A stretch of 64,000 nt of DNA, taken from the NCBI GenBank assembly GCA_963703345.1, contig OY969814.1, positions 2,208,001 through 2,272,000 of the forward strand, written 5' to 3'. Shown here piece after piece: positions 29,077 through 55,179 of the stretch. This DNA is from an uncultured Chloroflexia bacterium. Its GTDB lineage: Bacteria > Chloroflexota > Dehalococcoidia > DSTF01 > JALHUB01. Within the stretch, counting starts at the first letter, position 1. Every line of letters starts with the position of its first letter. Below the pieces are notes generated by a model, which did no database searches, was not told the origin of the DNA, and saw only the letters and a list, made by a program, of their open reading frames with translations. Both the position numbers and the translations under genes were made by a program.

Positions 29077-29117
29077 CGAGCGGGAATAGCTCAGTTGGTA
29101 GAGCATCTGCTTCCCAA
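29077..29117 (+). repeat. Truncated tRNA-Gly 5' half (att-like direct repeat)
   Basis: 41 bp identical to 33579-33619, ending at the end of the anticodon loop. Confidence 0.92.
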
Positions 29118-33581: not shown

Positions 33582-33657
33582 GCGGGAATAGCTCAGTTGG
33601 TAGAGCATCTGCTTCCCAAGCAGAGGGTCGCGGGTTCGAGTCCCGTTTCCCGCTCCA
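33582..33657 (+). tRNA. tRNA-Gly(CCC)
   Basis: 76 nt; GCGGGAA/TTCCCGC acceptor stem, TCTGC-TTCCCAA-GCAGA anticodon arm, GTTCGAG T loop, encoded CCA. Confidence 0.98.
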
Positions 33658-33979: not shown

Positions 33980-35173
33980 ATGCACAATCGCTCTGGTGAG
34001 CTCGCCGGGGCGAACTCGAACGCAGCAACTCAAGCTAGTCTCGTCGATCCGGCGAAGCTCAAACGACAAATTGTTGCCTCTCTCAGGGCGCAGGGATTTC
34101 GCATCTGTGGCGGCGAAATCCTGCCCCCGCGCGATCTCGACAAAGCCAAGATACGCGAGCTTCACACCACCGCGGTCTTTCATCGAATCGAGGTTTCCAG
34201 AAGAGGACTCGTAGGCCAAGAACCCCGCCTGCTTAGGCGGTTCGCTTCGGGGACCAACGTGGACCCGGCAAGCGTTAGGCCGCGCCTCGTCGAAGTGGAG
34301 CCGGATTCTGAGGACGAGCTGCTTTTCAGGTATGCTGCTTTGCACTGGAGTATCCCTGTCTCTTCCGGATATGGAAGGAGGATCCGATTTCTGGTTGTCA
34401 ACGAACAGAACCAGAGTCTCATCGGGCTCTTCGGACTGGGCGACCCAGTGTTCAGTCTCGCCGCCCGCGACGGATGGGTCGGGTGGGACAAAGAGTCGAG
34501 GCGCGAGAGGCTCCGCAACGTCATGGATGCTTTCGTGCTGGGTGCTGTCCCGCCCTACGCGAGTCTATTGTGCGGGAAGCTCGTTGCTATGCTCGTTTGC
34601 AGCTCAGAGGTGAGGCGGGCCTTCGAACGCAAATACGGTGGGGCAGAATCCTTCATAAGCCGCCGACCATCAGACGGTCGGCTCGCCCTTGTGACTACAA
34701 CCTCAGCGCTGGGCAGGTCTTCACTCTACAGCCGTATCAAGTACTGCGATCGCGTACTGTACGAGAGTGCCGGTTATACCAGGGGCTCCGGCGAGTTTCA
34801 CTTTGCCAACGGGCTCTATTCCGCTCTGACCAGCTATGCTCGTCTTCATTGTCAGCCAAGCGCGAAACATCCTGCATGGGGGATTGGATTCCGTAATCGG
34901 CGCGAGGTCGTGAGGAAAGCATTGAGGGAGCTCGGGTTGTCAGCCGAATGGGTCTACCACGGGGTTCGTCGGGAAGTGTTCGTCGTTCCACTGGCCCAAA
35001 ACACAAGAGAGTTTCTTCGGGGGGAGCACTCCGAGCTGCTATGGTCTGAACAATCAGCCGACGACCTGTTTAAGTGGTTCCGCGAACGGTGGCTGCTGCC
35101 CCGTGCCAGTCGCAACTGCTCGTACCGAGATTTCGACCCGCATTCATACGCAATATGGAACAACGCGACCTAG
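33980..35173 (+). CDS. druA: Druantia DruA-like protein (DUF4338)
   Basis: WSIPVSSGYGRRIRFLV, LGDPVF..AARD.WVGW, LGAVPPY..LLCGKLVA, TTTSALGRSSLY. Confidence 0.85.
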   Translation: MHNRSGELAGANSNAATQASLVDPAKLKRQIVASLRAQGFRICGGEILPPRDLDKAKIRELHTTAVFHRIEVSRRGLVGQEPRLLRRFASGTNVDPASVRPRLVEVEPDSEDELLFRYAALHWSIPVSSGYGRRIRFLVVNEQNQSLIGLFGLGDPVFSLAARDGWVGWDKESRRERLRNVMDAFVLGAVPPYASLLCGKLVAMLVCSSEVRRAFERKYGGAESFISRRPSDGRLALVTTTSALGRSSLYSRIKYCDRVLYESAGYTRGSGEFHFANGLYSALTSYARLHCQPSAKHPAWGIGFRNRREVVRKALRELGLSAEWVYHGVRREVFVVPLAQNTREFLRGEHSELLWSEQSADDLFKWFRERWLLPRASRNCSYRDFDPHSYAIWNNAT

Positions 35174-35231
35174 GGATTCGATCTCCAAAACAGGGAAGCG
35201 CGAGCATGGATGACCAGCTTTCGCGAGAGAG

Positions 35232-36383
35232 ATGAACGAATCTGAGACTCCGTTCGCTGACCTGCCCGAGGCCCTGCTTGACGAGATGCTCTCCCAAACA
35301 GAGCGGGTCGCCGAAGGCCTGTTGGGGACTTTCAGATCGGTCAACACGCAGCGGGCAGCTATGCGCGATGCCCTCAAGAGGCTCAACCTTGTCGACAATG
35401 AATCGTCTCTGGGTTATCCTCCTCTGCCGACGACCTGCGCGGTCAACGGCTCCTACGCTATAGAGAGGCTTCTTACCACCGATCTGGTGGCCTGTGCTGC
35501 CGTAGCAATCGAGGGTCTGACGCCGCCTTCAGAACAGCGGCATTGGGAGCAGCCTCGTCACCTCTCGGTCATTCAATCCGAAGTGCATCACGCCGAGACA
35601 GCTACCGTCCTTAGAGCTCTGATGCTGGGTCTTGAGTTGACGCTCGCGACAAGGGCTCCTCATGATGTTGTCATGCTCGACGCCACCCTCACCCTTCCGG
35701 TCATCTACTTCAACCAGGCCCTCCACGCTGCGGCTGGCGCGCCGGAGCTTGAGATATCGAGCGCTTTCCGCCAGCAGGCGGTCGATTTCCTGCGGTGCTA
35801 CGCCGCGATTCTTCAATCGGAACGTTCCGACCGGGACTTCGTTGGCCTGCCGAAGTACTCGACGAGGCGCGAGGTTGGCCGACAAGCCGGATGGTCGGAC
35901 CAACATGACGACAGGGGCCTACTTACACTCATTCTTGATCCTGGGGAGTTCACTAGGCCGCTTTCCCTTGAGCAGCCAGCGCAGCCCTGGCATCTAGGTA
36001 CGGGGACGCTCCCCCCCGATGTACGTGCAGATGCGGAACGCCTGGCTACGGAGATCGCGGGCCGCCTGGAGCAAGTTCGGATATTTTACTACAAGCCCCA
36101 CCGATGGTTGCCTGCCGTTAGGGTGGAAGTGCCTTCAAATGTTGCTGAAAACCAACACCGCCTGGCTAGGGTGGTCCAAGGAATAAAGCATCAGTGTGCG
36201 GCGGCCGGGATGATGGAGCCCTACCCCTTGTACATGGCGGACCGCATGGTAAAGGCCGTGGCGCGAGCGTTGCCGGCCTTCAGACAGGTGACGACGCAGC
36301 GGATTTCCGAGCAGTACGAAGGCGAGATCGCTGAAGTCTTCTTCGGCTTGCACGGCTATAGGTCAGAGTCAGGAGTTCAGTAG
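35232..36383 (+). CDS. NurA-family nuclease (first acidic motif reads VNGS)
   Basis: AVNGS (family xxDGS), VMLDATL, PK, PYPLYMADR; directly upstream of HerA-like ATPase. Confidence 0.8.
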   Translation: MNESETPFADLPEALLDEMLSQTERVAEGLLGTFRSVNTQRAAMRDALKRLNLVDNESSLGYPPLPTTCAVNGSYAIERLLTTDLVACAAVAIEGLTPPSEQRHWEQPRHLSVIQSEVHHAETATVLRALMLGLELTLATRAPHDVVMLDATLTLPVIYFNQALHAAAGAPELEISSAFRQQAVDFLRCYAAILQSERSDRDFVGLPKYSTRREVGRQAGWSDQHDDRGLLTLILDPGEFTRPLSLEQPAQPWHLGTGTLPPDVRADAERLATEIAGRLEQVRIFYYKPHRWLPAVRVEVPSNVAENQHRLARVVQGIKHQCAAAGMMEPYPLYMADRMVKAVARALPAFRQVTTQRISEQYEGEIAEVFFGLHGYRSESGVQ

Positions 36384-36385
36384 TG

Positions 36386-38191
36386 ATGGACACCGGTTCT
36401 ATGGGCCGAAGCATCGACAAACTCATCGATGACTCGGAGCGCCTTGGAGTCGTCGGCTCGCCTTCATCGACCGCCGAGCTTGCCATGGACGTCCTGGGTG
36501 CCGCTGTCAACAGGAAACTCGTCGGGGAGTTGGCTCTTTTCCGTTTCCTCCAGGACTCTGCCAGGCACTATGCACTCGGCCAGATTACGGAGGTAAAGCT
36601 GCGGAATATCTGGCACGAAGATCCAACGATGCGGAGCCTCATCAGGCAACGCGGGCGCGTCAACGCTGTGAGCGAGCGCCAAGACACGCACCTCGCTCAG
36701 ATGATTGTGAGCGCCGTGTTCAAAGACGGCGCCAGCTCCGCGACCTATGAGCCAAGCATAATGGGAACGGTACCCGCGACAGGTACGACGATTCATGTGG
36801 TAACAGACCCTATCCTGGAGGAGATTCTACGACCTTACCGCAGGCAGATCTTTTACCTTGGTCAGGTGTATGGTTCGAAGCCCAAACTGCCTCTATGGTT
36901 CAAGCACTTCGACCGAGGACCAGACGGCGCCGGAGAAGCCTATCATCTCGGCATTTTTGGCAAGACCGGTTCGGGCAAGTCGGTCCTGGCGAAGATGATT
37001 CTGCTCGCCTACGCCCGCTATCCTCAGATGGCTCTTCTCGTAATCGATCCGCAGGGCGAGTTTGCGCGCGATATCGGTGGTGGGCACACAACGGGTGAAT
37101 TCCCCTTGCCGTTAGGAGATCTCGTCAGCTCCCGAGGGAAGCCGGTCCGTGTTCTCACCGTAAAAAACCTTGTCCTCGATAGATGGGAGCTTTTCCGCCG
37201 AATTCTCTATGAGTCCCTTTTCTTTGAGCGCTTGACGATTCCGCGGAGCGAGAACCGAGAACTGGCGTGTGACATCCTTTCGGAGAAGTTGCAGAAAGCC
37301 GGGGTGAAGCTCGCTGAGCTTTGGAATCGAACTTCATTCGACCGCGCGTGGACTTTGCTTGGTGACCCCGCTGTGCAACGCAATTTCTATCGAACAGACG
37401 CGTCTCGCGCCCGCTTCGACGCCGCTCTGCACGAGGCAGATGCTGACGAGTTCTACAAGGATTACTGGCGCCCGGTGGCAGAGCTATTCCGCGCCGACAG
37501 ATCCGGAGCCACAACAGTTGAGAGTGCGCTTGGCTCCTTGTTAGATCCGCAGAAGGATCAGCGTCCGACTCTGGTAGTGGACCTGTCACGCGAACAGGCT
37601 TCCGGGATGTTCTGGAATGATACAATCCAGTCCCTAGTCATCAAGCGGCTTCTGGACGGTCTAGAGGTCACGGCAGAGCACTTCTTCAAGGGCGGAGAAA
37701 GCCTGAATGCGTTAGTAGTGATAGACGAAGCACACCGTCTCGCTCCACGAGAGTTGCCGACAGACGATGAGGCCGCGAAAGCGGTCCGAGGAGTTCTCAT
37801 TGACGCCGCACGAACAACGAGGAAGTATGGGTTAGGTTGGCTGTTCATCAGCCAAACCCTCTCGAGTTTGCACACCGAGATACTCCAGCAGCTCCGCATC
37901 ATGTTCTTCGGCTTCGGCCTCGGCCTCGGCCAGGAGTATCAGTCTCTCAGACAGTTGGTGGGCTCGTCCGGCCCCGCCCTTGACCTGTATCAGCTATTCA
38001 GAGATCCTCATTCAGCGTTTGACGCAAAGAGTCGCCAGTACTCTTTTATGACCATCGGCCCGGTGAGCCCATTGTCATTCTCCGGGAGCCCCCTTTTCTT
38101 CAACGCCTTCAACACGGTGGAGGCGTTCGTAGAAGCCAACGAGATGGAAACGAATCCAAGGCAGGACAGCGGGCAAGAACCTAGAATCTAG
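36386..38191 (+). CDS. HerA/FtsK-family ATPase (DUF87)
   Basis: N-terminal HAS-barrel-like region, GIFGKTGSGKS, VIDPQGE, VVIDEAH, RKYGLG...SQ. Confidence 0.9.
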   Translation: MDTGSMGRSIDKLIDDSERLGVVGSPSSTAELAMDVLGAAVNRKLVGELALFRFLQDSARHYALGQITEVKLRNIWHEDPTMRSLIRQRGRVNAVSERQDTHLAQMIVSAVFKDGASSATYEPSIMGTVPATGTTIHVVTDPILEEILRPYRRQIFYLGQVYGSKPKLPLWFKHFDRGPDGAGEAYHLGIFGKTGSGKSVLAKMILLAYARYPQMALLVIDPQGEFARDIGGGHTTGEFPLPLGDLVSSRGKPVRVLTVKNLVLDRWELFRRILYESLFFERLTIPRSENRELACDILSEKLQKAGVKLAELWNRTSFDRAWTLLGDPAVQRNFYRTDASRARFDAALHEADADEFYKDYWRPVAELFRADRSGATTVESALGSLLDPQKDQRPTLVVDLSREQASGMFWNDTIQSLVIKRLLDGLEVTAEHFFKGGESLNALVVIDEAHRLAPRELPTDDEAAKAVRGVLIDAARTTRKYGLGWLFISQTLSSLHTEILQQLRIMFFGFGLGLGQEYQSLRQLVGSSGPALDLYQLFRDPHSAFDAKSRQYSFMTIGPVSPLSFSGSPLFFNAFNTVEAFVEANEMETNPRQDSGQEPRI

Positions 38192-38849
38192 CAGTTTCTG
38201 ACCCGTGCTCACCGGGGCTTTCTTCCAATGACGCGAGGATCTTGTCGACCATGGGCATCAAGTCTCGCCGCAGTTCGTCCCTCGTTCCTTCGTTCTCGAT
38301 GACGGTCAGCGACAGGTCACCCCGAGCTCGTAGGGCGTCTAAATCGTCATCGCCATACCATTTCTCCATGTCAACTCGGGAGATGTATCTTGCCCGGTCA
38401 ACCTGCCCACGCGTGAGGTTGCGTTGCCATGCAATGTCCCACGATGATGAGAGGTATAGGACAAGCGATTGGTCAATGATCCGTTTCGGAAGACAATCGA
38501 ACAGGGGTGCGTAGACGTGGCGCGCAACCTCCGCTATCACCAGATCGGCCCGCTCGGTTTCCAGCTTGGCGTGCAGCCAGTTATCCAACTCCTGCCAGAT
38601 GGAGTCGTCAGTGATCTCGAATCCCCCGTCTTCAGTGGGGCGATGGCGCCTGAACGAGGGGTCTTTCTGGACCAAGACCCAGAGTACCGGGAAGTCGTGC
38701 ATGACTGCTATCTCCCCTTCGAAGCCCCGCAGACGCAGCTCATCGGTCAGGATCCTTGTCGCGAGAGACTTGCCAGTGCAGGGACGACCAACGACGAAGA
38801 CAAACCGTGCCAAAGCCCCTCTCCTTGAACTGGCACTGACGAGCGTCAC
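38181..38849 (-). CDS. P-loop nucleoside/nucleotide kinase-like protein
   Basis: FVVGRPCTGKS Walker A near the N-terminus, LYL....AWQRN..R lid-like motif, VIEN.G; about 220 aa. Confidence 0.72.
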   Translation of the reverse strand: MTLVSASSRRGALARFVFVVGRPCTGKSLATRILTDELRLRGFEGEIAVMHDFPVLWVLVQKDPSFRRHRPTEDGGFEITDDSIWQELDNWLHAKLETERADLVIAEVARHVYAPLFDCLPKRIIDQSLVLYLSSSWDIAWQRNLTRGQVDRARYISRVDMEKWYGDDDLDALRARGDLSLTVIENEGTRDELRRDLMPMVDKILASLEESPGEHGSETARF

Positions 38850-38867: not shown

Positions 38868-39725
38868 TTACGACCGCCCCCGCCTTCCCCACACGGCTAT
38901 GGAGAGTGCTGCAAGCGACAAAACGAGCGAAAAAAAGGATACCGCTAGCGCGGTCATTGGCCAACCACCCAGTATATCGCCTTCCGGTTTGATAACTGGG
39001 GCTATTGCGACGACAGCTAGGGCCGCTATGACCGCGGCCAGCACCGCCACCACAATCGTGATGAAGGTGATCGACTGCGCTCTGAGTTCGTCACTTTGCC
39101 TTGTCACGCGCGCTCCGAGTTCGTCACTTTGCCTTGTCACCCTCTCGACGTTCTCGACCATCTCGCGGGGAAAACTCCGCAGCCGATGAAGATCAAAATC
39201 CCCCAGAGAATCTCGGCCCTGCTTCATCGGTATGCTGATTCCTTTCCTGAACGGGGTGGTCTTGACGAAATCCATCGCGAAAAGCTCTTTGCGATAATCG
39301 AGAACTACTTCGCGATCGGCCAGATTATATACTGGTGCGAACAGTTCTCCTGACCATCCCGGGTCAACCTGAAGAGCTCCCACCCATAGCAAGCCCTCAT
39401 AAACGCTCGACACTTTCAGAGCCCATCGTGCTATCAAGAATCTTGGCAGGTTCAACTTCTCGTAAGTACTGACAATCGCCATTTGATAAGGAGCGATTTT
39501 AAGGGGAGCGTTTTCGGCTATTACCACATCGACTCCACCCAGACGAGCGTGACTTCCCAGCGTTAGGTTGTATCTTGCTGCTCGCAGGTGTTCCTGGTGG
39601 AATGGATCGATGAGCGGCGGGACTACTTTGGTGGAGTAGTATTCGATCTCGTCAGATAGGAGCACCGCTCCGTGCCATCCCCCCCGGCTCTTTCGCTGGT
39701 CTTCTTCAAGGATGTCTTCCTGCAT
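38868..39725 (-). CDS. dCTP deaminase/dUTPase-fold protein fused to coiled coil and two TM helices
   Basis: LLSDEI, LIDPF..EHLRAARYNLTLG, E.LNLP, VDPGWSG..YN; C-terminal FITIVVAVLAAVIAALAVV and LAVSFFSLVLSLAAL. Confidence 0.82.
   Translation of the reverse strand: MQEDILEEDQRKSRGGWHGAVLLSDEIEYYSTKVVPPLIDPFHQEHLRAARYNLTLGSHARLGGVDVVIAENAPLKIAPYQMAIVSTYEKLNLPRFLIARWALKVSSVYEGLLWVGALQVDPGWSGELFAPVYNLADREVVLDYRKELFAMDFVKTTPFRKGISIPMKQGRDSLGDFDLHRLRSFPREMVENVERVTRQSDELGARVTRQSDELRAQSITFITIVVAVLAAVIAALAVVAIAPVIKPEGDILGGWPMTALAVSFFSLVLSLAALSIAVWGRRGRS
39084..39140. repeat. 33-bp-period tandem duplication (RVTRQSDEL x2)
   Basis: gagttcgtcactttgccttgtcac at 39084 and 39117. Confidence 0.9.
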
Positions 39726-40079: not shown

Positions 40080-41024
40080 TCAAACTGGGGCCGGAACGCT
40101 ATTCGGCGGACTCATCTCCTTTGCGGGCATTGACTTTATCGCTTCGCCACAACCGCCATCGCAGCCGTTGTCCGGTACGTGGTTTGCCTCAAAGCAGCTA
40201 GGGCACACCATTTGGCCATTGCGAGTGTAGACGCGGCGCATAAGATTCGCCAGGGTCAGCTCTTCGCCAATCAGCCTATCCAATAGTCCGTCCTCTACCA
40301 TTGCCCTGCCCAACTTATTGATTCCCTCTGCTCGAATGCCTACTTTCCGAAGGATCGAGCAGCTCCACGACACCACATCGGCCAACTCCTCGATCATGTG
40401 AGCGCGATGACGATCGATCTCTTTGCTACCTTCTGCGGGAGCATCGCAGAGTATGCGTATATCTTCCGCAACCTCGGCGACCTCCTCTAGGTAATGAAAC
40501 CCGATGTCGCTGTCTAGACGCAGCTGGTCATCCTTGTCGAAGATCTCCTTGAAGAGGCCCTCAAGGTCACAAAGGGTCTTGGGCACGTGCCCCTTGGATT
40601 TCTTTCTATTTCTGGTCAACTGGTCAGCGACGTGTTCTTTGTCAAGAGGGCCTCTTAGTGACGCGCATTGGCAGCCAGGGCTCAGGCAATGGGGACAGAT
40701 CAGCGGATATTTGTAGAACGCAATCGTCCCAAGGCCGTCAAGCGCTCCCAAATGCGGATCGGTAATAGGCTCGAATGAGGCTGGAACCTGCTCCTTCTGG
40801 CCGAGCTTCCTTACAAAGATAGTCAGCCAACACCAGGCTTGCGCTAAGCCTACTAGTTGGGCCGAAAGGACCTCCTCGCGAATCCCTTCTCCTACCGCTG
40901 CCGCATGCTCTGCGACCTTCAACCAGATTCGCTCCAGGGATCGCTTTCCGGCCAACTCCCCGTAGAGTGACCAAAGCCCATCTGCCCAGGCATCAAGGTT
41001 GTCGTCGTCAGGAGCAGTAACCAT
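40080..41024 (-). CDS. MazG-like NTP pyrophosphohydrolase with duplicated domain and Cys clusters
   Basis: LEEVAEV...EELADVVSW in second half; degenerate AEH..A / LAQAWCW in first half; KYPLICPHC...CQC and CPSC. Confidence 0.78.
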   Translation of the reverse strand: MVTAPDDDNLDAWADGLWSLYGELAGKRSLERIWLKVAEHAAAVGEGIREEVLSAQLVGLAQAWCWLTIFVRKLGQKEQVPASFEPITDPHLGALDGLGTIAFYKYPLICPHCLSPGCQCASLRGPLDKEHVADQLTRNRKKSKGHVPKTLCDLEGLFKEIFDKDDQLRLDSDIGFHYLEEVAEVAEDIRILCDAPAEGSKEIDRHRAHMIEELADVVSWSCSILRKVGIRAEGINKLGRAMVEDGLLDRLIGEELTLANLMRRVYTRNGQMVCPSCFEANHVPDNGCDGGCGEAIKSMPAKEMSPPNSVPAPV

Positions 41025-42099
41025 AGGAGAATACTCCTCTTCTCTTGCCCGCTACCTCAGGGGCGTGCGTCGTCCGTCGATCAACCAACTCTTCATTTGT
41101 GGGACCCGTTCCGATAAACACCACCGGGACCCCTAGTTCCCCCTCAATTTCTCGAGCAAATCGGCGCGCACTTTCGGTGAGGTTCGCAAAATCAGTCTGC
41201 CCCTTGTTCTCGAAATCAATGTAGTCCACCCCGTGAACGGCAATAGCCGTAGGTCGATTCACCGCCGCCGCCCGTTTCACAAGGGCGAGGTCGAAAGTCG
41301 CCACTCGCCTGGGGTTCTTGGTGACAGTAGTCAACTCCATTATTGGATAGGGATACCCGCTCAACTCCCTCAGTCGATCCCAGGAGATCTCGTCACCGAT
41401 CTCGCCGGAATTGCCGGCGACCCTTATTGGGAAAGTGCGGACCGCCATGATTACATCGTCGACGGCCAACGGACTCAATCCAACCTCGCCTAGAAATGAC
41501 GCTGCCGTAGTGTCGCGGCTCGTGCAATATGGGAACTGAGCCGTGTGGTAAAGCGAGAGGCCATAACCTTGAGTGCCTTCTACTAAGGTTTTCGCCCCGC
41601 GATCGACCGCACTGTTGACTTCGTCGGCGACGTCCGTGAGAAATAGACGCAGCTCGGGCACGTCTTTAGCGAGTCTGAAAGATTCGTCGCGAAGAGCCCT
41701 GCGAGCGACGGCTGAACCTGTCCCGGACAACGTCGAGCCGCATCTCTCCCTGAGAAGGGTGCGTGTCTCAGCAGCCCGGTCAGTCTCCTCAATGATGCCC
41801 GTGTTTCGATCGATGCCAATTCTGTCCGGGCGCACGCCGAACGTCGCTAACTCATCAAAGAACACGCCAACATCCAGCAAACCGCCAGCAGCAATCAATA
41901 GCCGGGTCCTGGAGTTTACAAGTCCGGCCGGGATGCTCCGCAGTTGAATTCTCTTGCCGCCCATGTCAACGGTGTGGCCGGAGTTGGGTCCGCCGCAGCG
42001 CACTACGTATTCGACATCATCAGTCATACTCAGGTGGGAGCAGATTTTGCCCTTGCCCTCTCCTCCGTATTGAGCGCCCACGATCACCGTCACGCCCAT
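41008..42099 (-). CDS. Adenylosuccinate synthetase homolog with PurZ/PurZ0-type signatures
   Basis: GAQYGGEGKGK, GGPNSGHT, EGTQG..L, FPYCTSRD, RTFPIRVAGNSG, ELTTVTKNPRRV, HGVDY, GTGP; 363-aa short form; GGAGG RBS. Confidence 0.85.
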   Translation of the reverse strand: MGVTVIVGAQYGGEGKGKICSHLSMTDDVEYVVRCGGPNSGHTVDMGGKRIQLRSIPAGLVNSRTRLLIAAGGLLDVGVFFDELATFGVRPDRIGIDRNTGIIEETDRAAETRTLLRERCGSTLSGTGSAVARRALRDESFRLAKDVPELRLFLTDVADEVNSAVDRGAKTLVEGTQGYGLSLYHTAQFPYCTSRDTTAASFLGEVGLSPLAVDDVIMAVRTFPIRVAGNSGEIGDEISWDRLRELSGYPYPIMELTTVTKNPRRVATFDLALVKRAAAVNRPTAIAVHGVDYIDFENKGQTDFANLTESARRFAREIEGELGVPVVFIGTGPTNEELVDRRTTHAPEVAGKRRGVFSYGYCS

Positions 42100-43673
42100 T
42101 GCAGACCTCCTGAGACACTCGTCTCTTTGGCTCGCGGCATTCGAACGCCTTCATGATGATTCGGCGCTGTCGGCACGATTAGATAGCCTTCATCGTCGTT
42201 GCCCAGCGCTTCGTAGTCACCCGCAAGATAGAAATAACCGACGATGGCCGAGGTTATTGCATCCAGTTCATCATGACTAAGCGACTGATCAGCAAGCGGC
42301 CCCGTTATCCCAAAGTCGAGGAGCGACATCCTAAGCTCCTCTCTCCCTGTACTCTTCCGCGGTATTCGAAGAATGTCTTGGGCGGCCCCGGGGAAGCTCT
42401 CGATGACTTCAAGACCCTGTTGCCGCAATCTGTTCGCCAGCGTGATGCCCCGATTCGTCAAAGCGATCATTGTCGGCAATTGACACCAGAACACGGAGAT
42501 CCCGCGCTGCTTGAGCTCCAGCTCCGAGTGCCGGTAGATCTTCCGAATGCCCCCGTCCGTGGGTGCAGGCAAATTGAGCGGAGAGTCAATAGATACTACG
42601 TCGGGTTTTGCCTGCAGCGTCAGTTCCACGAGGTCATCGTCCGTTCGCACCACTTTGGTCGTTGCGTGTCTGCCTTTGAGCAGCGCCCAGCCCGTCGGCC
42701 GCTTTGGTGATGCGGCGAGATCAATGCCGACTATCCCGCGCTCTGTTCCAGTCTTTCGGAGAAGCGACAGTATGCGGTGCTTCCGGGGAGGGGTGACAGC
42801 TCGTCCGGAAGCCAACGGGGCGAGGGCCATACGGAGTGCCTCTTCGACTTGGGTGGCCGTCATGTCCATGCCGACAATTGGCCCGGGTGGCTCACTTGGG
42901 CTGCTGCTCAGCAAACGGCGACTTGCCTCCGAGTATGCGAAGTTTAGCAGTTGAACAAGGTTGACGGTATCCCACATGTTGTAGCGCACTAGTTGTTCGA
43001 AAGCGGACTGCTGGCCACGCTTATACGCGAACCAAAGGGCGGCGGCCTGCCTTCCTGTAATGGCCTGAGATTCCGCATCTCTGGTGAGACCGAGCGCCTG
43101 CTCGATGCGCTTGAGGCCTCCCCGTAGCTCGAGGCGGGCGAGAAGAAAACGTAGATCCACATGAACCAAGGGTAGATCAAGCTTCGGGTAGGCGGACCGC
43201 AAGAAGGGGATGTCGAACTGGCTCCCATTGAATGTCACCAGGATCCCGAAACGACGCACTGCGTCAGGGAAGCGCTCCAAGTTGACGCCCTGGACGAAGC
43301 ATTCGTAGCCTTCCTTGCTGTACAGACCTACCATGGTCAGTTCGTCGTAATAGCGACTGAGCCCAGTCGTCTCGACGTCAAGGAAAGCAATGCGGTCAGA
43401 GAACTCGCGAACTAGGCGCCATCGTTCGCCAGATGGGAACAGCGGAGCAAAGTAGTCCAAACGACGGTGATCGAGAGCCTGCTTTGACTCGCGGAGCCCC
43501 GACAGCAGTCGGCGCGAAGGCCCGACCAGGCGCTCGGTCGAAATCGGGGCGGGATTCAGCGGACGGTCAACCCAAGCGAAGTAGTCCGACCAGGAATGGA
43601 TTCCCTGGGACCACAGTCGCTGCTCGGTTCGCCTGCCGACTCCGTGTAGGTGGCTGAAGGTATTGGTGAGCAT
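42090..43673 (-). CDS. YprB-like (RNase_H_2, DEDD) exonuclease fused to DUF429 domain
   Basis: HhH-like GVGRRTE, FLDVETTG, FNGSQFD, HVDL, YNMWD; then VGIDLA, SIDSPL, IESFPG, HDELDAI. Confidence 0.82.
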   Translation of the reverse strand: MLTNTFSHLHGVGRRTEQRLWSQGIHSWSDYFAWVDRPLNPAPISTERLVGPSRRLLSGLRESKQALDHRRLDYFAPLFPSGERWRLVREFSDRIAFLDVETTGLSRYYDELTMVGLYSKEGYECFVQGVNLERFPDAVRRFGILVTFNGSQFDIPFLRSAYPKLDLPLVHVDLRFLLARLELRGGLKRIEQALGLTRDAESQAITGRQAAALWFAYKRGQQSAFEQLVRYNMWDTVNLVQLLNFAYSEASRRLLSSSPSEPPGPIVGMDMTATQVEEALRMALAPLASGRAVTPPRKHRILSLLRKTGTERGIVGIDLAASPKRPTGWALLKGRHATTKVVRTDDDLVELTLQAKPDVVSIDSPLNLPAPTDGGIRKIYRHSELELKQRGISVFWCQLPTMIALTNRGITLANRLRQQGLEVIESFPGAAQDILRIPRKSTGREELRMSLLDFGITGPLADQSLSHDELDAITSAIVGYFYLAGDYEALGNDDEGYLIVPTAPNHHEGVRMPRAKETSVSGGLQWA

Positions 43674-43891: not shown

Positions 43892-45370
43892 ATGACAGAT
43901 TCCGACCCTTCAACGCATTGGCCGAGCCACATCTCGCCTCTTGAGTTCCGGTACCTGCCTTCTGGGGACCCGAGAAGCGAACGAGTCAGGCAGTATCTCA
44001 CTGAAGAAGCCTATGTCCGCTATCTCACCAGGGTCGAGTCCGAGCTGGCAAGGGCACTTGGTAGGCTGGGGGTATGCCCTCAGGAAGTTGCGGATTCTAT
44101 TTCGAGGGCAGCTGATGCTGTCAGCGCCGTGGAAGTGTACCACGAAGAGCGCACTACAGGTCATCAGATCCCGGCCCTGGTAAACTGCATACGTCGAAGG
44201 GTTCCCCCCGATGCGGCGAATTTCGTTCACCTTTTTGCCACGTCGTCTGACATCATGGACACCGCGAACGCCTTACGCTACAAAGAATTCGCCAGGGACG
44301 TTCTGCTCGTTGACCTCATTCGGCTGGAGCGAACGCTTATCGAACTAGCCGAGATGCACGCTAGCACAAGACAGGTGGGCAGAACTCATGGGATGTTTGC
44401 TGAACCCTTGACATTTGGCTTCGCGCTAGCGTTCTACGTTGATCGGCTCGGCAATCGAATCCGCAGCATTAATGACGCTCGGAACAACCTACGAGGCAAA
44501 CTCTCCGGCGCAGTGGGGGCCTACAATTCGATGTCGCTTGCGTTCCCGGACGACCCTACGGTTCTGGAATCCGACGTTCTGGGCCACCTGGGCTTGCAGC
44601 CCTCAGACACTCGCATTTCAACGCAGATTGTTCAACCTGAATACTTGACAGACTTCGTTTATTCGGTCGTGACGTGTCATTCCGTGATCGCGAATCTCGC
44701 CGATGACATGAGACACTTACACAGAAGCGAAATCGCGGAGGTGCGAGAACGTAGTGGCGAGGGCCGGGTGGGCTCTTCAACAATGCCTCGCAAGATCAAC
44801 CCCCAGTCCTTCGAGACCGTAAAGAGCATGTGGAAGGTGACGATGCCGCGCCTCACTACCGTGTTGCTCGATCAGATATCCGAGCATCAGCGAGACTTGA
44901 CGAACTCGGCCTCGATGCGCTTCATGCCCGAGATTCTGGCGGCTGTCGATTTCTCAGTTTGTCTTCTTGGCGACGCAATGCAGCGTCTGGAAGTAGGGGT
45001 TGACAGCATGAAGTCGAACCTCGCCTCTGCCTCGCGGGAGACCGTAGCAGAGCCGCTCTACATCTTGCTCGCGCTCAACGGCTGCCCGAACGGTTTCGCG
45101 AAAGCGCGCGACCTGGTAGGCCAATCTATCGCTACTGGTGTGCCGGTGTTAGACCTTTGCGAGGTTGATGAAGATGTGCGTCCGATCCTCGCCCGACTGC
45201 GCCAGGAACATGTTGCTATCCTTCAGGACCCGAGCCTCTATGTGGGAGACGCGGTGAGGAGAGGCAACGAAACGTGCGCCCTCTGGCGCGCCCAAGTCAA
45301 CCGGCTAGAGGCCGCATTGCAGCGAGAAAGAGCGGAGCGTTCGGCTTCGTCTCTTGGGCCGAGGCTGTGA
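43892..45370 (+). CDS. purB: Adenylosuccinate lyase family protein (island copy)
   Basis: ISPLEFRY, H..ATSSDI.DTA, GRTHG..AEP.TFG, GAVG, STQ, GSSTMPRKINP, EHQRDLTNS. Confidence 0.88.
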   Translation: MTDSDPSTHWPSHISPLEFRYLPSGDPRSERVRQYLTEEAYVRYLTRVESELARALGRLGVCPQEVADSISRAADAVSAVEVYHEERTTGHQIPALVNCIRRRVPPDAANFVHLFATSSDIMDTANALRYKEFARDVLLVDLIRLERTLIELAEMHASTRQVGRTHGMFAEPLTFGFALAFYVDRLGNRIRSINDARNNLRGKLSGAVGAYNSMSLAFPDDPTVLESDVLGHLGLQPSDTRISTQIVQPEYLTDFVYSVVTCHSVIANLADDMRHLHRSEIAEVRERSGEGRVGSSTMPRKINPQSFETVKSMWKVTMPRLTTVLLDQISEHQRDLTNSASMRFMPEILAAVDFSVCLLGDAMQRLEVGVDSMKSNLASASRETVAEPLYILLALNGCPNGFAKARDLVGQSIATGVPVLDLCEVDEDVRPILARLRQEHVAILQDPSLYVGDAVRRGNETCALWRAQVNRLEAALQRERAERSASSLGPRL

Positions 45371-45451: not shown

Positions 45452-46069
45452 TTAGGATGACGTTTTGCGGCCGCTCGTGGTGCCCGTTCTCTCGTCGGCA
45501 AGAATCTTCGCCCACTGCTCTTTGGACTCTTTCTCGCCGTAAGGCCACTCCGCGAAGGTGAGAACCAGGACCACTATCGTGTAAACCATCCCGAGAGCGA
45601 TGACGCTTACAAAACCCTCCCTGGGATTGGGCTTAAGGTCGAAGGCTACCTGTACCAGAAATGGCAGCGCACCCGCTGCGATTCCTAGAAGGAGGAAGAC
45701 CATAGCTTGCGCTCCTGAATATGCACGTATGGCTACGCGTCGCCGGAGCTTGCGGTATATCTCCCATCGCTGTTCCCATTGTGACTGGCCAGTCGCAGAG
45801 AGATAAGCAGTGATCACTCGTAATTGGACCTTCAGTGCCTGGTGCAGGCAAAACAGCGCTAGAAGAACAAGCAAGAGCAGAAGAGAGATACCGTAGGTAA
45901 TCCATCCAACATCGCTGGCTGTCGCATTAGCCTTCTCCACTATCCAGCCGGCGCCGACGCCGAAAATCGTAACTGCCAGGATGGTTATGAGAAGCCTCTG
46001 ATTCACTATTTGATTGACCTCGCCGTGAAGCTTCGTGGCATCGAGTTTCTCACCTTCTTCTGTCTGCAC
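45452..46069 (-). CDS. Four-TM membrane protein (effector-like)
   Basis: Four hydrophobic helices; GTG at 46069 with GGAGG RBS overlapping end of upstream gene. Confidence 0.7.
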   Translation of the reverse strand: MQTEEGEKLDATKLHGEVNQIVNQRLLITILAVTIFGVGAGWIVEKANATASDVGWITYGISLLLLLVLLALFCLHQALKVQLRVITAYLSATGQSQWEQRWEIYRKLRRRVAIRAYSGAQAMVFLLLGIAAGALPFLVQVAFDLKPNPREGFVSVIALGMVYTIVVLVLTFAEWPYGEKESKEQWAKILADERTGTTSGRKTSS

Positions 46070-47042
46070 GACGCGGCCTCCTGTGTGTCGAGTCCTGGCC
46101 GGAATACTTCCCCATTTCTCTCTCAAGGGCAGCAAGTGATGTCGCATTACCGAAACAGCGGGACATCGCAAGCAAGAGGCGATATCTCGACGTCGGGTGC
46201 CAGCGGTAACCGCGTCGTGTCTGCACAATTAGACGTGCCACGTTGGTCGGCAGAAGAGGGACGAATCGCAGACGTTTCAACTCTGCTCTACTACGGTCCC
46301 TTCGTTTTCTCCACGACGTCATAAGATCGCCAGACGAGAAGGCCGTCTTTAGATAGGCTACGATTGCAGGATTGGCTATCGCCGATTCGATGACCACGGC
46401 GAGGAGCGCACAATCGCTTGGTTCGGCACCTGCAGGAAAGAGTTCCTCGTTTACGCCTCGCGCTGCCGCTGCGTGAAATGCTGCATCCCCATAGGCCAAA
46501 TCCTCAGGCGAAAGTTGCTCTTCAAAGGAGGCACACCAATGGAGTGGGTGGTATTCTACCCACTCGCTCCTCTGGGCAAGCACTAGCATTTCATCCGCGG
46601 TCTCCACGATGCCGTGAATGCTGACAATGTTTGGAGTTGAGGCGGTTTTGGATTCGACGAGGGTCCGGATAAGCTCAAGCCGCGAGCCTATCCCCCCGTT
46701 CGACCTGAGATACTCGTGAATCGGTTGCACCTCGGACCATTCGGTGGCTTGGACACTGAGACGAATCTTCTCCCCCTGAGACGTGTAGGTTCGAAGCGAC
46801 AGTTTGCGTTCGCTAATCTCGTCACGGTGATGTTCAAGCCATGAATCTCTGAGTGCACGCCAACTATCCGAGATACCTCCTACTCTGCGTTGAATTCTGA
46901 CACGCGTGTCTCGAATTTCCCACCCTGGCGATAGGCTTGGCGCTCTAGTCCCTTCGATTGCTCCATCCACGATCAGCTGGGGCATAGGAATTTGGGTCGC
47001 CCTGCCGCCGCTCGGGACTGCGTAGAATTCCTGAAAATCCAT
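46050..47042 (-). CDS. Nudix-fold-like protein
   Basis: VETADEMLVLAQRS..V...P..W..SFEE...AAARGVNEEL divergent Nudix box. Confidence 0.65.
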   Translation of the reverse strand: MDFQEFYAVPSGGRATQIPMPQLIVDGAIEGTRAPSLSPGWEIRDTRVRIQRRVGGISDSWRALRDSWLEHHRDEISERKLSLRTYTSQGEKIRLSVQATEWSEVQPIHEYLRSNGGIGSRLELIRTLVESKTASTPNIVSIHGIVETADEMLVLAQRSEWVEYHPLHWCASFEEQLSPEDLAYGDAAFHAAAARGVNEELFPAGAEPSDCALLAVVIESAIANPAIVAYLKTAFSSGDLMTSWRKRRDRSRAELKRLRFVPLLPTNVARLIVQTRRGYRWHPTSRYRLLLAMSRCFGNATSLAALEREMGKYSGQDSTHRRPRRADRRR

Positions 47043-47048
47043 CGCAGT

Positions 47049-48419
47049 TCAGGAGAGATTCGTCGGTCGAATGCTATGAGCATCCATGCGTCGTGCCGCC
47101 TTTGTGATTGTGTTGATTACGCCTGCCCGATATTGCCCTCTAGTCCATTGGGCCAAGGCCTGATATCCGCCGACTAGTGCGGGAACGCTCTGTCCTACTT
47201 CATTATGCGAAATCATCGGAGCGACGGCCGCAGCCAACAGAGCCCAGGCCGGGATTGACCGAGGAGTAGAATTCGTCAATTTCTTCTCCCAAGCTCGCTC
47301 CAGCGCTGTCGCGTGCTCGCGAATTGCGTCCTCTAGTTGCTCTTCATGCCTGTCATCCTCGTGCCATCGTGCCAACGCTTCTTGATAGCGCTGGCGCGTA
47401 AGATCCGTTTCCTGGAACACTAGCGTCACTTTAGGCCACTCCAACTCCAGCGGATCCCATTTGAACAATCCCGCGACTCCCTTGAGCCAAAGACGATTCG
47501 AGGAAGACTCCCTCTGATTCTCATCGAATGGGTACAAGGCGTCGCAGGGCCTATCCAGGAAGAGGCTTACCGGCACTGAATCTGGCAGAGCCCCGACCGA
47601 AGCACCATCGGGAGCCAGCGTACGTTGCACGGCCGCATTCCACGCGTGAATAACCGTGTTCCTTATAGCTCTATATGTTGGGGCATCAAGTCCATCCCTG
47701 TGCTCCTCAAGACAGGTCATGACCGCCGACCGAATCCCACGATCTGGCACATTGTCGTCGATGAACTTTTTCGTGCTATGGACCACCGTCCAGCTACTCA
47801 CCCCTAGTTCTTCCGGCCCGCGAGCGTACAACTCTTCCAAAATGTCGTACATTGTAACCGGGGCCCGAGTCTTTGCTCGCTTCGTCGCCGAGGTTTCGTC
47901 CCGGGAGAAGTACTCAATGGCCCTTAGCGGTCCCGACAACCTCGGGTCCAGGTCGCCAATACCTCTTGGATACGGCTCAACAAGCATCCTCTCAAGGTCA
48001 ATACTCCCCGACGACAGCAAGAGGTCGGCAAATCGTGTTATGGGTTGAGCCGTTCCAAGCGAGGATGAGATCCAGCCAGGCTTGAGCGTCCGCCTCAGTC
48101 CCCAGGTCGCGATCCCAAAGTTCCCCAAGGCTCGACCGGTCTTGTCGGGATTTGCCACGAGTTCGAAAGGTGAGAATTGCGAATCCCGTGCCAAGCGCGC
48201 CAGCTCCTCGGGTAGGGCGTCATCCACGAAAAGTGCTTGCACAACGGGACTGTCGAACAGATGCACATCATTGAGCACGAGCGTGTTCCCGAAGAGCATA
48301 TGGAGCCTAACGATTCTCTGGGCATTCTCCTTAAGTTGCTGAACGTTCGGTTGCGGAAGTCCATGCCAAGATTGGGGACGGAAATACTCCCCATCGAACC
48401 ACTGAGCATAGCGACGCAT
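47049..48419 (-). CDS. Hypothetical protein (456 aa)
   Basis: Long ORF with purine-rich RBS, 6 nt from the next gene; no family recognised. Confidence 0.65.
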   Translation of the reverse strand: MRRYAQWFDGEYFRPQSWHGLPQPNVQQLKENAQRIVRLHMLFGNTLVLNDVHLFDSPVVQALFVDDALPEELARLARDSQFSPFELVANPDKTGRALGNFGIATWGLRRTLKPGWISSSLGTAQPITRFADLLLSSGSIDLERMLVEPYPRGIGDLDPRLSGPLRAIEYFSRDETSATKRAKTRAPVTMYDILEELYARGPEELGVSSWTVVHSTKKFIDDNVPDRGIRSAVMTCLEEHRDGLDAPTYRAIRNTVIHAWNAAVQRTLAPDGASVGALPDSVPVSLFLDRPCDALYPFDENQRESSSNRLWLKGVAGLFKWDPLELEWPKVTLVFQETDLTRQRYQEALARWHEDDRHEEQLEDAIREHATALERAWEKKLTNSTPRSIPAWALLAAAVAPMISHNEVGQSVPALVGGYQALAQWTRGQYRAGVINTITKAARRMDAHSIRPTNLS

Positions 48420-49276: not shown

Positions 49277-49728
49277 GGATCCGCTCGTCTCCTAATGGTT
49301 GCCCGGGATGTCGGTATTCTCCCCTCTCGAAAGCAGATCGTCAAGACCCGATGTTGATCGCTTTGAGGCTTGCCGCGCGCGCGGCGTTTGGTTCGCCGAT
49401 ATCGTTCTCGACCGCAATGAAATACTTGGAGATATGTCCTAGAGCTGGCCATCCCAAATGAGTGGTGGTGGATGGGTACGAATGGGTTGACGAAGGCAAG
49501 GGGTATCGGCGTTCTTGATACCGACCGATGTCGTCAACGGCTACGGAATCAGGCGGCCCCACGACCACCCGCTTGCAGAGTGCACGACGCGCGCGTCGTG
49601 TCGCTAAAAGAGCCACCAGCCGTGGCGCCTCCGACGCCCTGCCGACTCTTGGGCAGCTCGAACGTTGGGTTCTTGCGGCGGTCTGAGTGAATGGACATGG
49701 CCCAATTCTCCTATATACTATTTCCAAG

Positions 49729-50433
49729 ATGAAGGAGCAGCCCGACGTTGCGACTCCCTTTGCATCAGCAACAACTGATGAGTTCCTGGACTGGTGGAAC
49801 GGATCCCGCCAAGCGATCCATCAGTGGCTGGAGAAGCAGTCGTCCCCGCTTGCAGAACTGTATTTCGGAGCAGGCCGCCTTCTTTGTGAAAAGACGCCAG
49901 GATGGACTCGGTTCGTCGGTCATGCAGTGCGGGAAATAGTCAACCGGCTTCCCACTGCAATCTGCGGCGAAGTGGGCGGAGGTCGTCTTGAATATCCTAA
50001 ACGCGTCGAAGCGATCGCGGTTGTGTGGCCGAGGGCAAACCTAGGGCTTGCAGAAGCACAGATAGATTACAGCGGTACGGGTGTCGTCAGAACGCTTCCC
50101 TTGCCAGTTTGGAGGGAGGTTGATCAGTTGATCCAGGATCATCGGGGCGTGCCGACTCGCAATCGAGAGCGCGCCCTGAAAATGCTACAGGTGTTGGTGC
50201 CAGAATCGTCGCCTGGCGGCGGACAGATGGCCCTGGCAGCGGGCAGGTGGGTAGAGATTGGGCGTTGGGCGGAGGGACGAGCCCACGATCAAACGCGCTG
50301 CGACGAGGAACACAACGACGGCGAAATCATTGGACAGTTCGAGGCCCTGGAAAGAATCATACTCAGTGTCACCCGGCCATTCTTCCAGAATAAGGACGAC
50401 CTAGATGAGCTCCTGGAACAAACCAACGCCTGA
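49729..50433 (+). CDS. Hypothetical protein, possibly HEPN-like
   Basis: GHAVREI.NRLP and W...RAH helical motifs; TATACT 9 nt upstream of ATG 49729. Confidence 0.6.
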   Translation: MKEQPDVATPFASATTDEFLDWWNGSRQAIHQWLEKQSSPLAELYFGAGRLLCEKTPGWTRFVGHAVREIVNRLPTAICGEVGGGRLEYPKRVEAIAVVWPRANLGLAEAQIDYSGTGVVRTLPLPVWREVDQLIQDHRGVPTRNRERALKMLQVLVPESSPGGGQMALAAGRWVEIGRWAEGRAHDQTRCDEEHNDGEIIGQFEALERIILSVTRPFFQNKDDLDELLEQTNA

Positions 50434-53718: not shown

Positions 53719-53901
53719 TTGCGGCACCTCCTTTCAAGGTGACGCATACATCACTCTGCTTTGGCGCCAAGTCAACCCGGTTCTCCAGAGATAAAGGCAA
53801 AACGAGGAGAATTCGCCCCGATAGCCCCCTCTCACGCTTGACTTCGTGCGCCGTCAGAGTGATGTATGTCCATACCAGAATCGCGCGGTCGGGAGGACGC
53901 A

Positions 53902-54921
53902 GTGACCAAGAGAAACGAAGACGGCAGTAGCGACAAGGAGGACCTTCAGACCCTCGTTGACCTCTATCTCCTCCGTTGCCAGGTCGAAGGCAAGTCGCCC
54001 AACACCCTGAAGGCCTACGCCTGGACCATGAGACGTTTTGTGGAAGTAGCTCGTCAGGAGGGATTCGCCGGCCCTGTTCGCCAGATCACGCCAGTTCACC
54101 TCTACAGCTACCTTGGCCGCTTCTCGAATCTCTCCGCCGAATCGAGGCACCGCTATCATCGCGAGGTCTCCTTCTTCTTCAGTTGGCTGGAGTCGATGGG
54201 GTACGTAGACCGTTCCGCCTTCGCCCAGATCAAGAAGGTGAAGCTGCCGCAGCGGATCATCCAGCCCTTCTCTCAAGAGGACGTGCGCAAGCTGCTCGCG
54301 CTATGCGACGACTCTCCCGTCGGTCGACGCGATCGAGCGATGCTTCTGGTGATGCTCGACACGGGCGTCAGGGTTAGTGAGCTGGTTCACCTAAACTTGG
54401 CAGATGTCGATCTAGAAACAGGCCGCACTCGGGTCCTTCACGGCAAGGGCAACAAGCAGCGGGTGGTAGCCTTCGGTGACGGATGCAAGGACGGTCTATT
54501 GAGCTACCTCGAGGCGAGAGGATACGAGCCTGGCCCGCTGTTCGTGGCGGTGACGGGACATCGAAGGCTGCACCTGGGCGTCGGGCTCCAGCCGAATGGA
54601 GTGAAGCAGATGTTACGGCGCTTGGGCAGGAGGGCGGGTCTGCCCAAGGTCCATGCTCACCGCTTCCGTCACACCTTCGCCACCTGGGCCATCGAGCAAC
54701 ACGCACGAGAGCTGGATGTCCAGTACTTGCTGGGGCATTCGACCCCCGACATGGTCAGACGATACTCGTCTACGTATAATTCGGAACAGGCTGCTCGCGC
54801 TCACGCGGCCTTCAGCCCGGCAGACTGGCTGGGGCGCGCTGGCCTCCTCACTCATTCGCGCTCAATGCCCTGCCTCTCCCCGTCGTCAAGGCCCATCCTT
54901 GCCCCCGATCGCTTGAGCTAG
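53902..54921 (+). CDS. Tyrosine recombinase/integrase
   Basis: KSPNTLKAY SAM-like N-terminus; DTGVRVSEL (R), GKGNK (K), HRFRH, LLGH, RRY catalytic set. Confidence 0.93.
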   Translation: MTKRNEDGSSDKEDLQTLVDLYLLRCQVEGKSPNTLKAYAWTMRRFVEVARQEGFAGPVRQITPVHLYSYLGRFSNLSAESRHRYHREVSFFFSWLESMGYVDRSAFAQIKKVKLPQRIIQPFSQEDVRKLLALCDDSPVGRRDRAMLLVMLDTGVRVSELVHLNLADVDLETGRTRVLHGKGNKQRVVAFGDGCKDGLLSYLEARGYEPGPLFVAVTGHRRLHLGVGLQPNGVKQMLRRLGRRAGLPKVHAHRFRHTFATWAIEQHARELDVQYLLGHSTPDMVRRYSSTYNSEQAARAHAAFSPADWLGRAGLLTHSRSMPCLSPSSRPILAPDRLS

Positions 54922-55179
54922 AACGCCCCAGCAACCAAGCGCACGTCTGTCTCTCGCGGTCCTGTCGATGAGGGCTCCTCGACCCCCATCCACGGCGGCA
55001 AACTCCTCGATCACGCACTCCGCTGGCGGTCAACCATATTAATGCGGAAGAAGGCGCGTGGGAAGCAGGGCAGCAGATCTACTGGCAAATGTGGCCAATG
55101 TGAATCTGTAAGAACGGCTATTGGCTTCCGGTCGACCATATAGCTGGCAGCAGATTACACAACACGCACGGAGGCGACG

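Follow-up and report, generated by a model that had tools for sequence, protein, structure and literature searches.

A PurZ-like enzyme paired with a catalytically dead dCTP-deaminase-fold membrane protein: a gene cassette with a putative role in Z-nucleotide signalling

Z (2-aminoadenine) nucleotides have so far been regarded as a phage means of evading host nucleases. Among the phage enzymes concerned, PurZ0 uses GTP. The dGMP pocket of PurZ has been characterised: its Ser23 lies 3.7 Å from the 2-amino group, beyond hydrogen-bond range, and Q308/N297 exclude guanine from the donor site (PMC8342488, accessible sections). According to the accessible sections of PMC12884076, Asp13 is 99% conserved in PurA; at the corresponding position 147/147 phage PurZ-group proteins have Ser, and four archaeal sequences have either Ser or Gly, which means that the Gly variant is already in print. 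The same source assigns 'ATP and GTP, respectively' to PurZ0 and PurZ, at odds with the ATP/dATP use of S-2L PurZ in PMC8342488; the order of the nucleotides in that sentence is probably swapped. In the Kongming system, the catalytic Asp of KomB is replaced, its binding residues are kept, and its ligand is dITP (10.1101/2024.12.20.629578, open part).

We analysed a stretch of 64,000 nucleotides (the window) from an uncultured Chloroflexia bacterium. It contains a PurZ-like gene in a run of minus-strand genes, next to a divergent lyase gene:

42090..43673, minus strand: DEDD-type exonuclease (RNase_H_2) fused to DUF429 (Pfam), acidic catalytic residues intact; overlaps the start of the PurZ-like gene by 10 nt
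41008..42099, minus strand: PurZ-group enzyme with the short adenylosuccinate-synthetase fold and Gly13, Ile225, Thr257 and Asp292; predicted signal synthase
40080..41024, minus strand: MazG-like pyrophosphohydrolase (EExxE at 180, EExxD at 212, Cys pairs), a locus-specific accessory gene; overlaps the stop of the PurZ-like gene
38868..39725, minus strand: dCTP-deaminase-fold (Dcd-like) domain without catalytic residues, with two predicted transmembrane (TM) helices; predicted receptor-effector
38181..38849, minus strand: P-loop nucleotide-kinase-like gene (P-loop at residue 21), the last of the run
43892..45370, plus strand: PurB, a second adenylosuccinate lyase in which the catalytic motifs are present; divergent from the cassette and likely accessory

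The PurZ-like protein (363 aa) carries QYGGEGKG at residues 10-17, PIRV at 224-227, TTVTKNPRR at 257-265 and HGVDY at 289-293. These are the four motifs named in a preliminary description of the locus; all were present in the translation and the alignments, and alignments to Pyrococcus PurA, PurZ0 (7vf6) and phiVC8 PurZ bore out the register. The protein matched the Pfam adenylosuccinate synthetase family (E 4e-46). Its best PDB match was Pyrococcus PurA (E 2e-74), followed by PurZ0 7vf6 (6e-41) and phiVC8 PurZ (1e-30), with identities of 44-45% to Pyrococcus PurA, 34-37% to PurZ0 and about 29% to phiVC8/S-2L PurZ. The predicted structure (pLDDT 89.5) gave Z 48.0 and rmsd 1.6 over 333 aligned residues with 5k7x (Pyrococcus PurA), and Z 42.7 and rmsd 2.5 over 337 with 7vf6; judged from this model, the overall fold does not tell PurA from PurZ. 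Scores fell below the NCBIfam cut-offs for both the archaeal-type PurA equivalog PRK04293 (346.5 bits, cut-off 368) and PurZ NF038379 (212.7 bits, cut-off 300).

Diagnostic residues were read in the best 120 of 3148 matches to the protein (55-81% identity). Position 13 was Gly in 88 of these, Ser in 32 and Asp in none, so that the Gly found in the window in place of the catalytic Asp13 of PurA (codon GGA, nt 42063-42061) is neither a sequencing error, as had been argued from the codon, nor unique to this copy. All four Gly codons were used among 17 Gly loci. The best 150 cluster representatives had Ser in 127, Gly in 7, Asp in 5, another residue in 2 and a gap in 9; the metagenome and viral loci were retrieved by patterns demanding Gly or Ser at 13, and the absence of Asp from them, being by construction, was not counted. 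Ile225, Thr/Ser257 and Asp292 were each found in 120/120 homologs, as against Asp13 in 28/30, Thr225 in 29/30 and Gly/Ala257 in 29/30 of the archaeal short-type copies (top 30 matches; 211 genomes matched); the diagnostic change of the TTVT loop is thus Thr/Ser257 versus the Gly/Ala of the archaeal short type. The pocket residues G121-S122-T123, Y191-C192-T193, R226-V227 and T257-T260 match PurZ0 and phiVC8 PurZ. Of the dGMP/aspartate pocket, both the IRV and the TTVT loop are present, and the protein shares with PurZ0 an extension of the loop that follows IRV. Gly and Ser at position 13 both drop the Asp and would leave space for the 2-amino group, and Gly is plausible there because the Ser hydroxyl is too distant for a hydrogen bond (PMC8342488, accessible sections).

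The equivalent of PurA R303, which the same sections tie to binding of the ribose 2'-OH, is position 262. The loss of this Arg from TTVTKNPRR, noted earlier, holds for the window copy (Asn262) and fails as a trait of the family, since the homologs have Arg in 73/120, Lys in 24 and Gln in 19; it was discarded as a family marker. Together with residues 40 (Ser in 118/120) and 290 (Gly in 119/120), which are unlike those of PurZ/PurZ0, and with the rarity of PurB in the cassette, the kept Arg would suit another signal in the same layout, with GMP or a different purine as substrate, or with the succinyl intermediate serving as the ligand. We hold this to be unlikely, since the partners suggest deoxynucleotides (a dNK in 21/80 metagenome loci, the Dcd fold, a DNA exonuclease) and the loop after IRV is extended in the manner of PurZ0.

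For the tree, 74 rows were picked from 151 that had already been reduced at 72% identity, with six partial rows dropped, and a quick, non-mixture LG+G4 model was used. The tree separated the 18 Asp rows from the full set of 56 Ser/Gly rows, among them phage PurZ and PurZ0 (SH-aLRT 97), and FastTree returned the same split from the 151 rows (support 0.99); this is the supported split, with no supported deeper order inside the Ser/Gly clade. On this tree 6 changes were needed for the 11 Gly rows, with starred branches forcing at least 5 of these; monophyly of the Gly rows was rejected (AU p=3e-6) in a test that left the trait columns in, a choice favouring monophyly. The Gly forms are therefore polyphyletic inside the Ser/Gly clade, and the earlier suggestion that Gly13 might mark a distinct subclade had to be given up. 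The window protein lay outside the 99-support phage PurZ0 branch (Archimedes, Ghobes, Wayne, Hiyaa), and its gene does not combine membership of that branch with a phage genome carrying dutZ. It also departs from ATP-type phage PurZ in having Gly13 rather than Ser13 and Asp292 rather than a distal Asn. The distal Asp had been likened to that of GTP-using forms; it is shared with 4 PurZ0-type phage references, its invariance among the 120 homologs points to GTP use, and ATP/dATP specificity is not expected because the distal motif is HGVDY and not NFCNY. The clade shared with phage PurZ/PurZ0, the dGMP-pocket residues and the separate purA of the host support the view, also taken earlier, that the protein belongs to the PurZ group and not to PurA, and its predicted activity is the conversion of dGMP and aspartate to 2-amino-deoxyadenylosuccinate.

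The host genome has its own long purA, purB and dcd elsewhere, and a search of 40 relatives did not recover the short paralog. A survey of 400 genomes of the phylum gave 7 with a short-type match (2 Ser forms and 5 Asp), and a separate Asp-type or long purA was present in 4/4 genomes checked (the host, two Ser-form members of the phylum and one archaeon). The GC content of the cassette is 57% against 64% for the genome, a value as low being reached by 0.5% of 829 windows. The PurZ-like gene is a second copy, horizontally acquired. It could in principle have no role in defence and act as a redundant adenylosuccinate synthetase, in a salvage module, or in a selfish addiction cassette carried by a mobile island: the nearest solved structure is an archaeal PurA, PurB adjoins the cassette, and the enrichment in the flanks given below may reflect mobility alone. 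Such a role is very doubtful, because the window protein lacks the Asp13 that is 99% conserved in PurA (PMC12884076, accessible sections), the host already has purA, purB and dcd, the paralog was missing from the relatives searched, and the dead membrane partner would be left without a metabolic role.

That partner, and not Gly13, is the main finding: a conserved and widespread cassette with a dead Dcd-fold membrane protein, which the earlier reading did not contain. The protein matched solved dCTP deaminases at a profile E of 2e-23. Ser111, Arg115 and Glu138 of E. coli Dcd, which we take to be the catalytic triad, align to V105, Y109 and P131 of the window partner, and its TM helices are predicted at residues 224-242 and 260-278. 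In an alignment of 46 copies (the window copy and 45 of 58 BLAST matches), the triad positions read V/I, Y/H and P in 46/46, and a hydropathy scan found 1-3 TM segments in 46/46; the host dcd, the intact control, reads S, R and E in the same alignment. Pairwise distances of the PurZ-like and Dcd-like proteins were correlated (rho 0.65, 44 gene pairs, 0/2000 permutations), which partly reflects shared descent of the cassette. The partner gave no match in 50,697 phage records and 1 weak match in 80 viral loci. A more distant Dcd-like protein with one TM segment and no triad was seen beside a uracil-DNA glycosylase (NZ_CP007047.1, 5980-6714), with no annotated PurZ within 6 kb; going by this case, dead-Dcd receptors may also be coupled to enzymes that produce other signals.

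The composition of the cassette was counted in the best 80 of 531 confirmed metagenome loci; a contig scan with the single PurZ-like protein as query had found only 5 distant loci. A Dcd-like partner was present in 60/80 loci, directly downstream of the PurZ-like gene in 56. An AAA protein took its place in 8/80, and the two occurred together in none; contigs ended too early in 5/80, and 7/80 carried neither partner. The mutual exclusion (hypergeometric p 4e-6, overstated since kin are not independent) goes with an AAA swap found in three parts of the tree. AAA ATPases with an N-terminal helical region replace the Dcd-TM gene in loci L035, L042, L070-L072, L074, L091, L092 and L187; the N-terminal part scored 0.77 to cyclase-type helical folds in an Atlas search, which we treat as a lead only. 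An exonuclease-DUF429 homolog was found in 48/80 loci, and among 40 full-length proteins the DEDDy residues were kept in 36-38 and the five DUF429 acids in 40; two homologs carry a PHP domain in place of DEDD. An NMP-kinase-like gene or domain was present in 47/80 loci and a dNK in 21/80. Fusions of a kinase to PurZ were paired with DUF7002 in 4/4 such loci read (L190, L195, L196, L223). This form was seen in the host's own phylum, on rhizobial plasmids and in one archaeon, with an upstream IrrE or Macro gene in two loci and a RADAR-like pair upstream in L195. The plasmid of S. medicae (CP140912) carries only the PurZ-like and Dcd-like pair (WQO70624.1, WQO70623.1); its partner has the pattern I/Y/P and no TM segment above the threshold used. 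Uncultured phages with Ser-type PurZ0-like genes had their own PurB homolog nearby in 22/80 viral loci (L116-L174).

The intact nuclease domains in the cassette core and the pairing of kinase-PurZ fusions with DUF7002 raise the alternative that Z serves as a DNA mark or poison, with dZTP entering replicating DNA, DUF429 nucleases or DUF7002 acting there, and the Dcd-TM protein being secondary. A Z cluster has a toxic effect when expressed in E. coli, and Z is incorporated into the DNA of this host (PMC8342488, accessible sections), as this alternative would have it. We consider it improbable, since it leaves unexplained the invariant dead dNTP-binding fold with TM segments directly downstream in 56/80 loci, the S. 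medicae plasmid shows the two-gene pair by itself, and the window cassette has no DatZ-like or DpoZ gene.

We give about an even chance to a Kongming-like anti-phage alarm, in which a dZ nucleotide made from dGMP sets off a membrane effector; both the signal and the defence role are putative. The level of dGMP would rise as DNA is degraded in the infected cell, or through the action of the cassette's exonuclease-DUF429, its deoxynucleoside kinase or its MazG-like gene. The PurZ-group enzyme would then use aspartate and GTP to make 2-amino-deoxyadenylosuccinate, PurB (of the host or the adjoining copy) would yield dZMP, and the cassette kinase with host NDK would give dZDP/dZTP. Binding of the Z nucleotide by the dead Dcd domain could let the TM helices damage the membrane, with growth arrest or death against the phage as the likely outcome.

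Several findings count against this alarm. By overall identity and by structural score the protein is closer to Pyrococcus PurA than to PurZ0, and it reaches 212.7 of the 300 bits of the NCBIfam PurZ cut-off. The Dcd fold natively binds pyrimidine dNTPs, and a purine ligand would need a remodelled pocket. The distant Dcd-like TM protein beside the glycosylase gene (L266) has no annotated PurZ, and the S. medicae partner no TM segment above threshold. The window's MazG-like gene matched 0/80 loci and its PurB 1/80, 7/80 had neither partner, and clear defence genes lay in only 5/23 flanks. dZTP would also enter host DNA (PMC8342488, accessible sections).

The reverse arrangement may also be considered. 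Following Panoptes-like logic, a constitutive Z-type nucleotide would silence the membrane protein, and phage enzymes that drain Z would release the toxin. The cassette does encode the enzymes for such a supply, and none of its proteins is an obvious phage sensor. We nonetheless rate this arrangement as distinctly unlikely: constitutive dZTP would be mis-incorporated, and an activating design is simpler given the low resting pool of dGMP.

The remaining genes of the window cassette appear more local. The MazG-like protein had an Atlas score of 0.90 (MazG in 15% of members), weak PDB matches (E 0.1-0.17) and a single-sequence fold prediction with pLDDT 37, and gave no BLAST match in any fetched locus, the 80 metagenome loci included. 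The kinase matched the cassette kinase HMM weakly (20 bits, E 2e-7 among 14 proteins), with no Pfam match and no BLAST match in any fetched locus. The window PurB is 33% identical to host purB, matched 1/80 metagenome loci by BLAST and had no close copy in 60 genomes of the phylum. Pfam found no DatZ or DpoZ gene in the window cassette and no folE or queC/D/E neighbours around it; Pfam and NCBIfam found no KomA deaminase, KomB HAM1 fold or KomC SIR2 among the cassette genes. A prophage Z-genome cluster was ruled out, as the cassette has no DatZ/DpoZ and phage records no Dcd-TM match. The PurZ-like, Dcd-TM, MazG-like and kinase genes are not covered by any PADLOC 2023 model, and promoter and terminator scans were at chance level. 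No RNA data set was listed as containing the sequence, and one DNA run with short, almost identical fragments of the island may come from the source sample.

The flanks of 23 cassette loci were compared by PADLOC (E 1e-20) with those of 20 purA control loci. Matches were found for 16/137 flanking proteins at 11/23 cassette loci and for 3/139 proteins (of 214 available) at 3/20 control loci (p 0.027), the controls being housekeeping DNA and not other mobile cargo. With generic mad2/mad3 matches removed, the counts were 10/23 and 0/20, and with clear defence genes only (two methyltransferases, WYL, AbiE, short pAgo) 5/23 and 0/20 (p 0.051). Four further cassette flanks with PADLOC matches are related Cas1/PolB elements; such a Cas1 and PolB (casposon-like) element lies directly downstream of the cassette in the related loci L046, L047, L053 and L059. 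The flanks show an accessory, mobile, defence-leaning setting rather than proof of function. In the window, a DruA match (E 1e-112), a HerA-type ATPase, a Dsr1-like protein and an integrase lie near the cassette, and a tRNA gene marks the border of the island:

33582..33657, plus strand: tRNA-Gly(CCC), the only one of the genome; left border of the low-GC cassette island

A 46-nt copy of the 3' end of this tRNA lies 35.8 kb downstream, beyond the window, and the right border is not fixed because five further copies occur elsewhere. The 3'-half copies (contig C1, 8436, 1028570, 1034294, 1062705, 1308653 and 2277373; not called tRNA by ARAGORN) and a 41-nt copy of the 5' part (window 29077-29117) were read as repeated use of the site by elements. 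At 33980-38191 (plus strand), the lone DruA match is followed by a 383-aa ORF without a family match, presumably NurA-like, and the HerA-type ATPase; no other Druantia gene was seen around it by Pfam and PADLOC. Three minus-strand ORFs at 45452-48419 (258 aa, hydrophobic; 330 aa, which we take to be Nudix-like; 456 aa), with no Pfam, NCBIfam or PADLOC match, could form a further defence operon of a new type. At 49687-53200 (plus strand), a 248-aa ORF and a 931-aa protein that matches the C-terminal part of Dsr1 (E 1.5e-32) with no SIR2 match are possibly a split or effector-swapped Dsr system. The tyrosine integrase, ParB-DNA methylase and terminase-large-subunit-like gene at 53866-58418 (plus strand) are a phage-derived remnant on the right side of the island.

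Three points are new here: the Dcd triad is lost without exception, the partner can be exchanged, and the Gly forms are polyphyletic. Our literature search found no description of the cassette, and two 2026 reviews were without a PurZ or aminoadenine term; earlier publications on PurZ and PurZ0 may list these cellular homologs. The open part of bioRxiv 2025.10.22.683976 makes no mention of dCTP deaminase or DUF429. Somewhat more tentatively than the alarm itself, we suggest a modular immune family of bacteria and archaea that uses 2-aminoadenine nucleotides as second messenger and dead Dcd-effectors or AAA/DUF7002 proteins as readers, with phage PurZ/PurZ0 as offshoots. If true, Z nucleotides would have a function in cells, as an immune signal, and would join the dITP of Kongming as a second base-modified messenger; this would account for cells keeping PurZ-like genes and bear on the origin of phage PurZ. 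The two-gene plasmid version in cultured S. medicae (CP140912) makes the Z-alarm reading directly testable.

Set against the known systems, the window enzyme is most like archaeal short PurA (Pyrococcus horikoshii 2d7u/5k7x) in its short fold, identity and Z score, but the Asp13, Thr225 and Gly/Ala257 of that enzyme are replaced in what is an accessory second copy. Toyocamycin-type deazapurine clusters with a short PurA have folE, queC/D/E and Asp13, none of which is found in the window. A Rhizobium plasmid (NZ_CP050089.1) carries folE, a short Asp-type purA, purB, queC/D/E and nitrile hydratase, a cluster that we take to resemble the toyocamycin/sangivamycin one. Phage PurZ (phiVC8 6fm1, S-2L 7odx), found with MazZ/DatZ, has the same dGMP-pocket residues and, as mazZ, an adjoining MazG-like gene; it differs in its distal motif NFCNY, and the window has no DatZ/DpoZ. 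PurZ0 (Gordonia phage Archimedes, 7vf6) shares the missing Asp13, the PIRVAGNSG and TTVT loops, the distal Asp and the Ser/Gly clade, but has Ser where the window enzyme has Gly, and its partners are DutZ/DmtZ rather than Dcd-TM, exonuclease-DUF429 and kinases; the window enzyme stands outside the PurZ0 branch, on a chromosomal island. Kongming has no homologous part, with a deaminase, HAM1 and SIR2 where the cassette has an AdSS, Dcd and TM/AAA, and unlike Kongming the window-type cassette, with its putative signal, holds its kinases inside. The likeness, as far as the open part of the Kongming report goes, is one of design: a base-changing enzyme, kinase steps, a catalytically replaced nucleotide fold with an effector, and modular partners. 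By analogy with Kongming, the precedent for a dead enzyme as sensor, the Dcd-TM partner may be read as a receptor.
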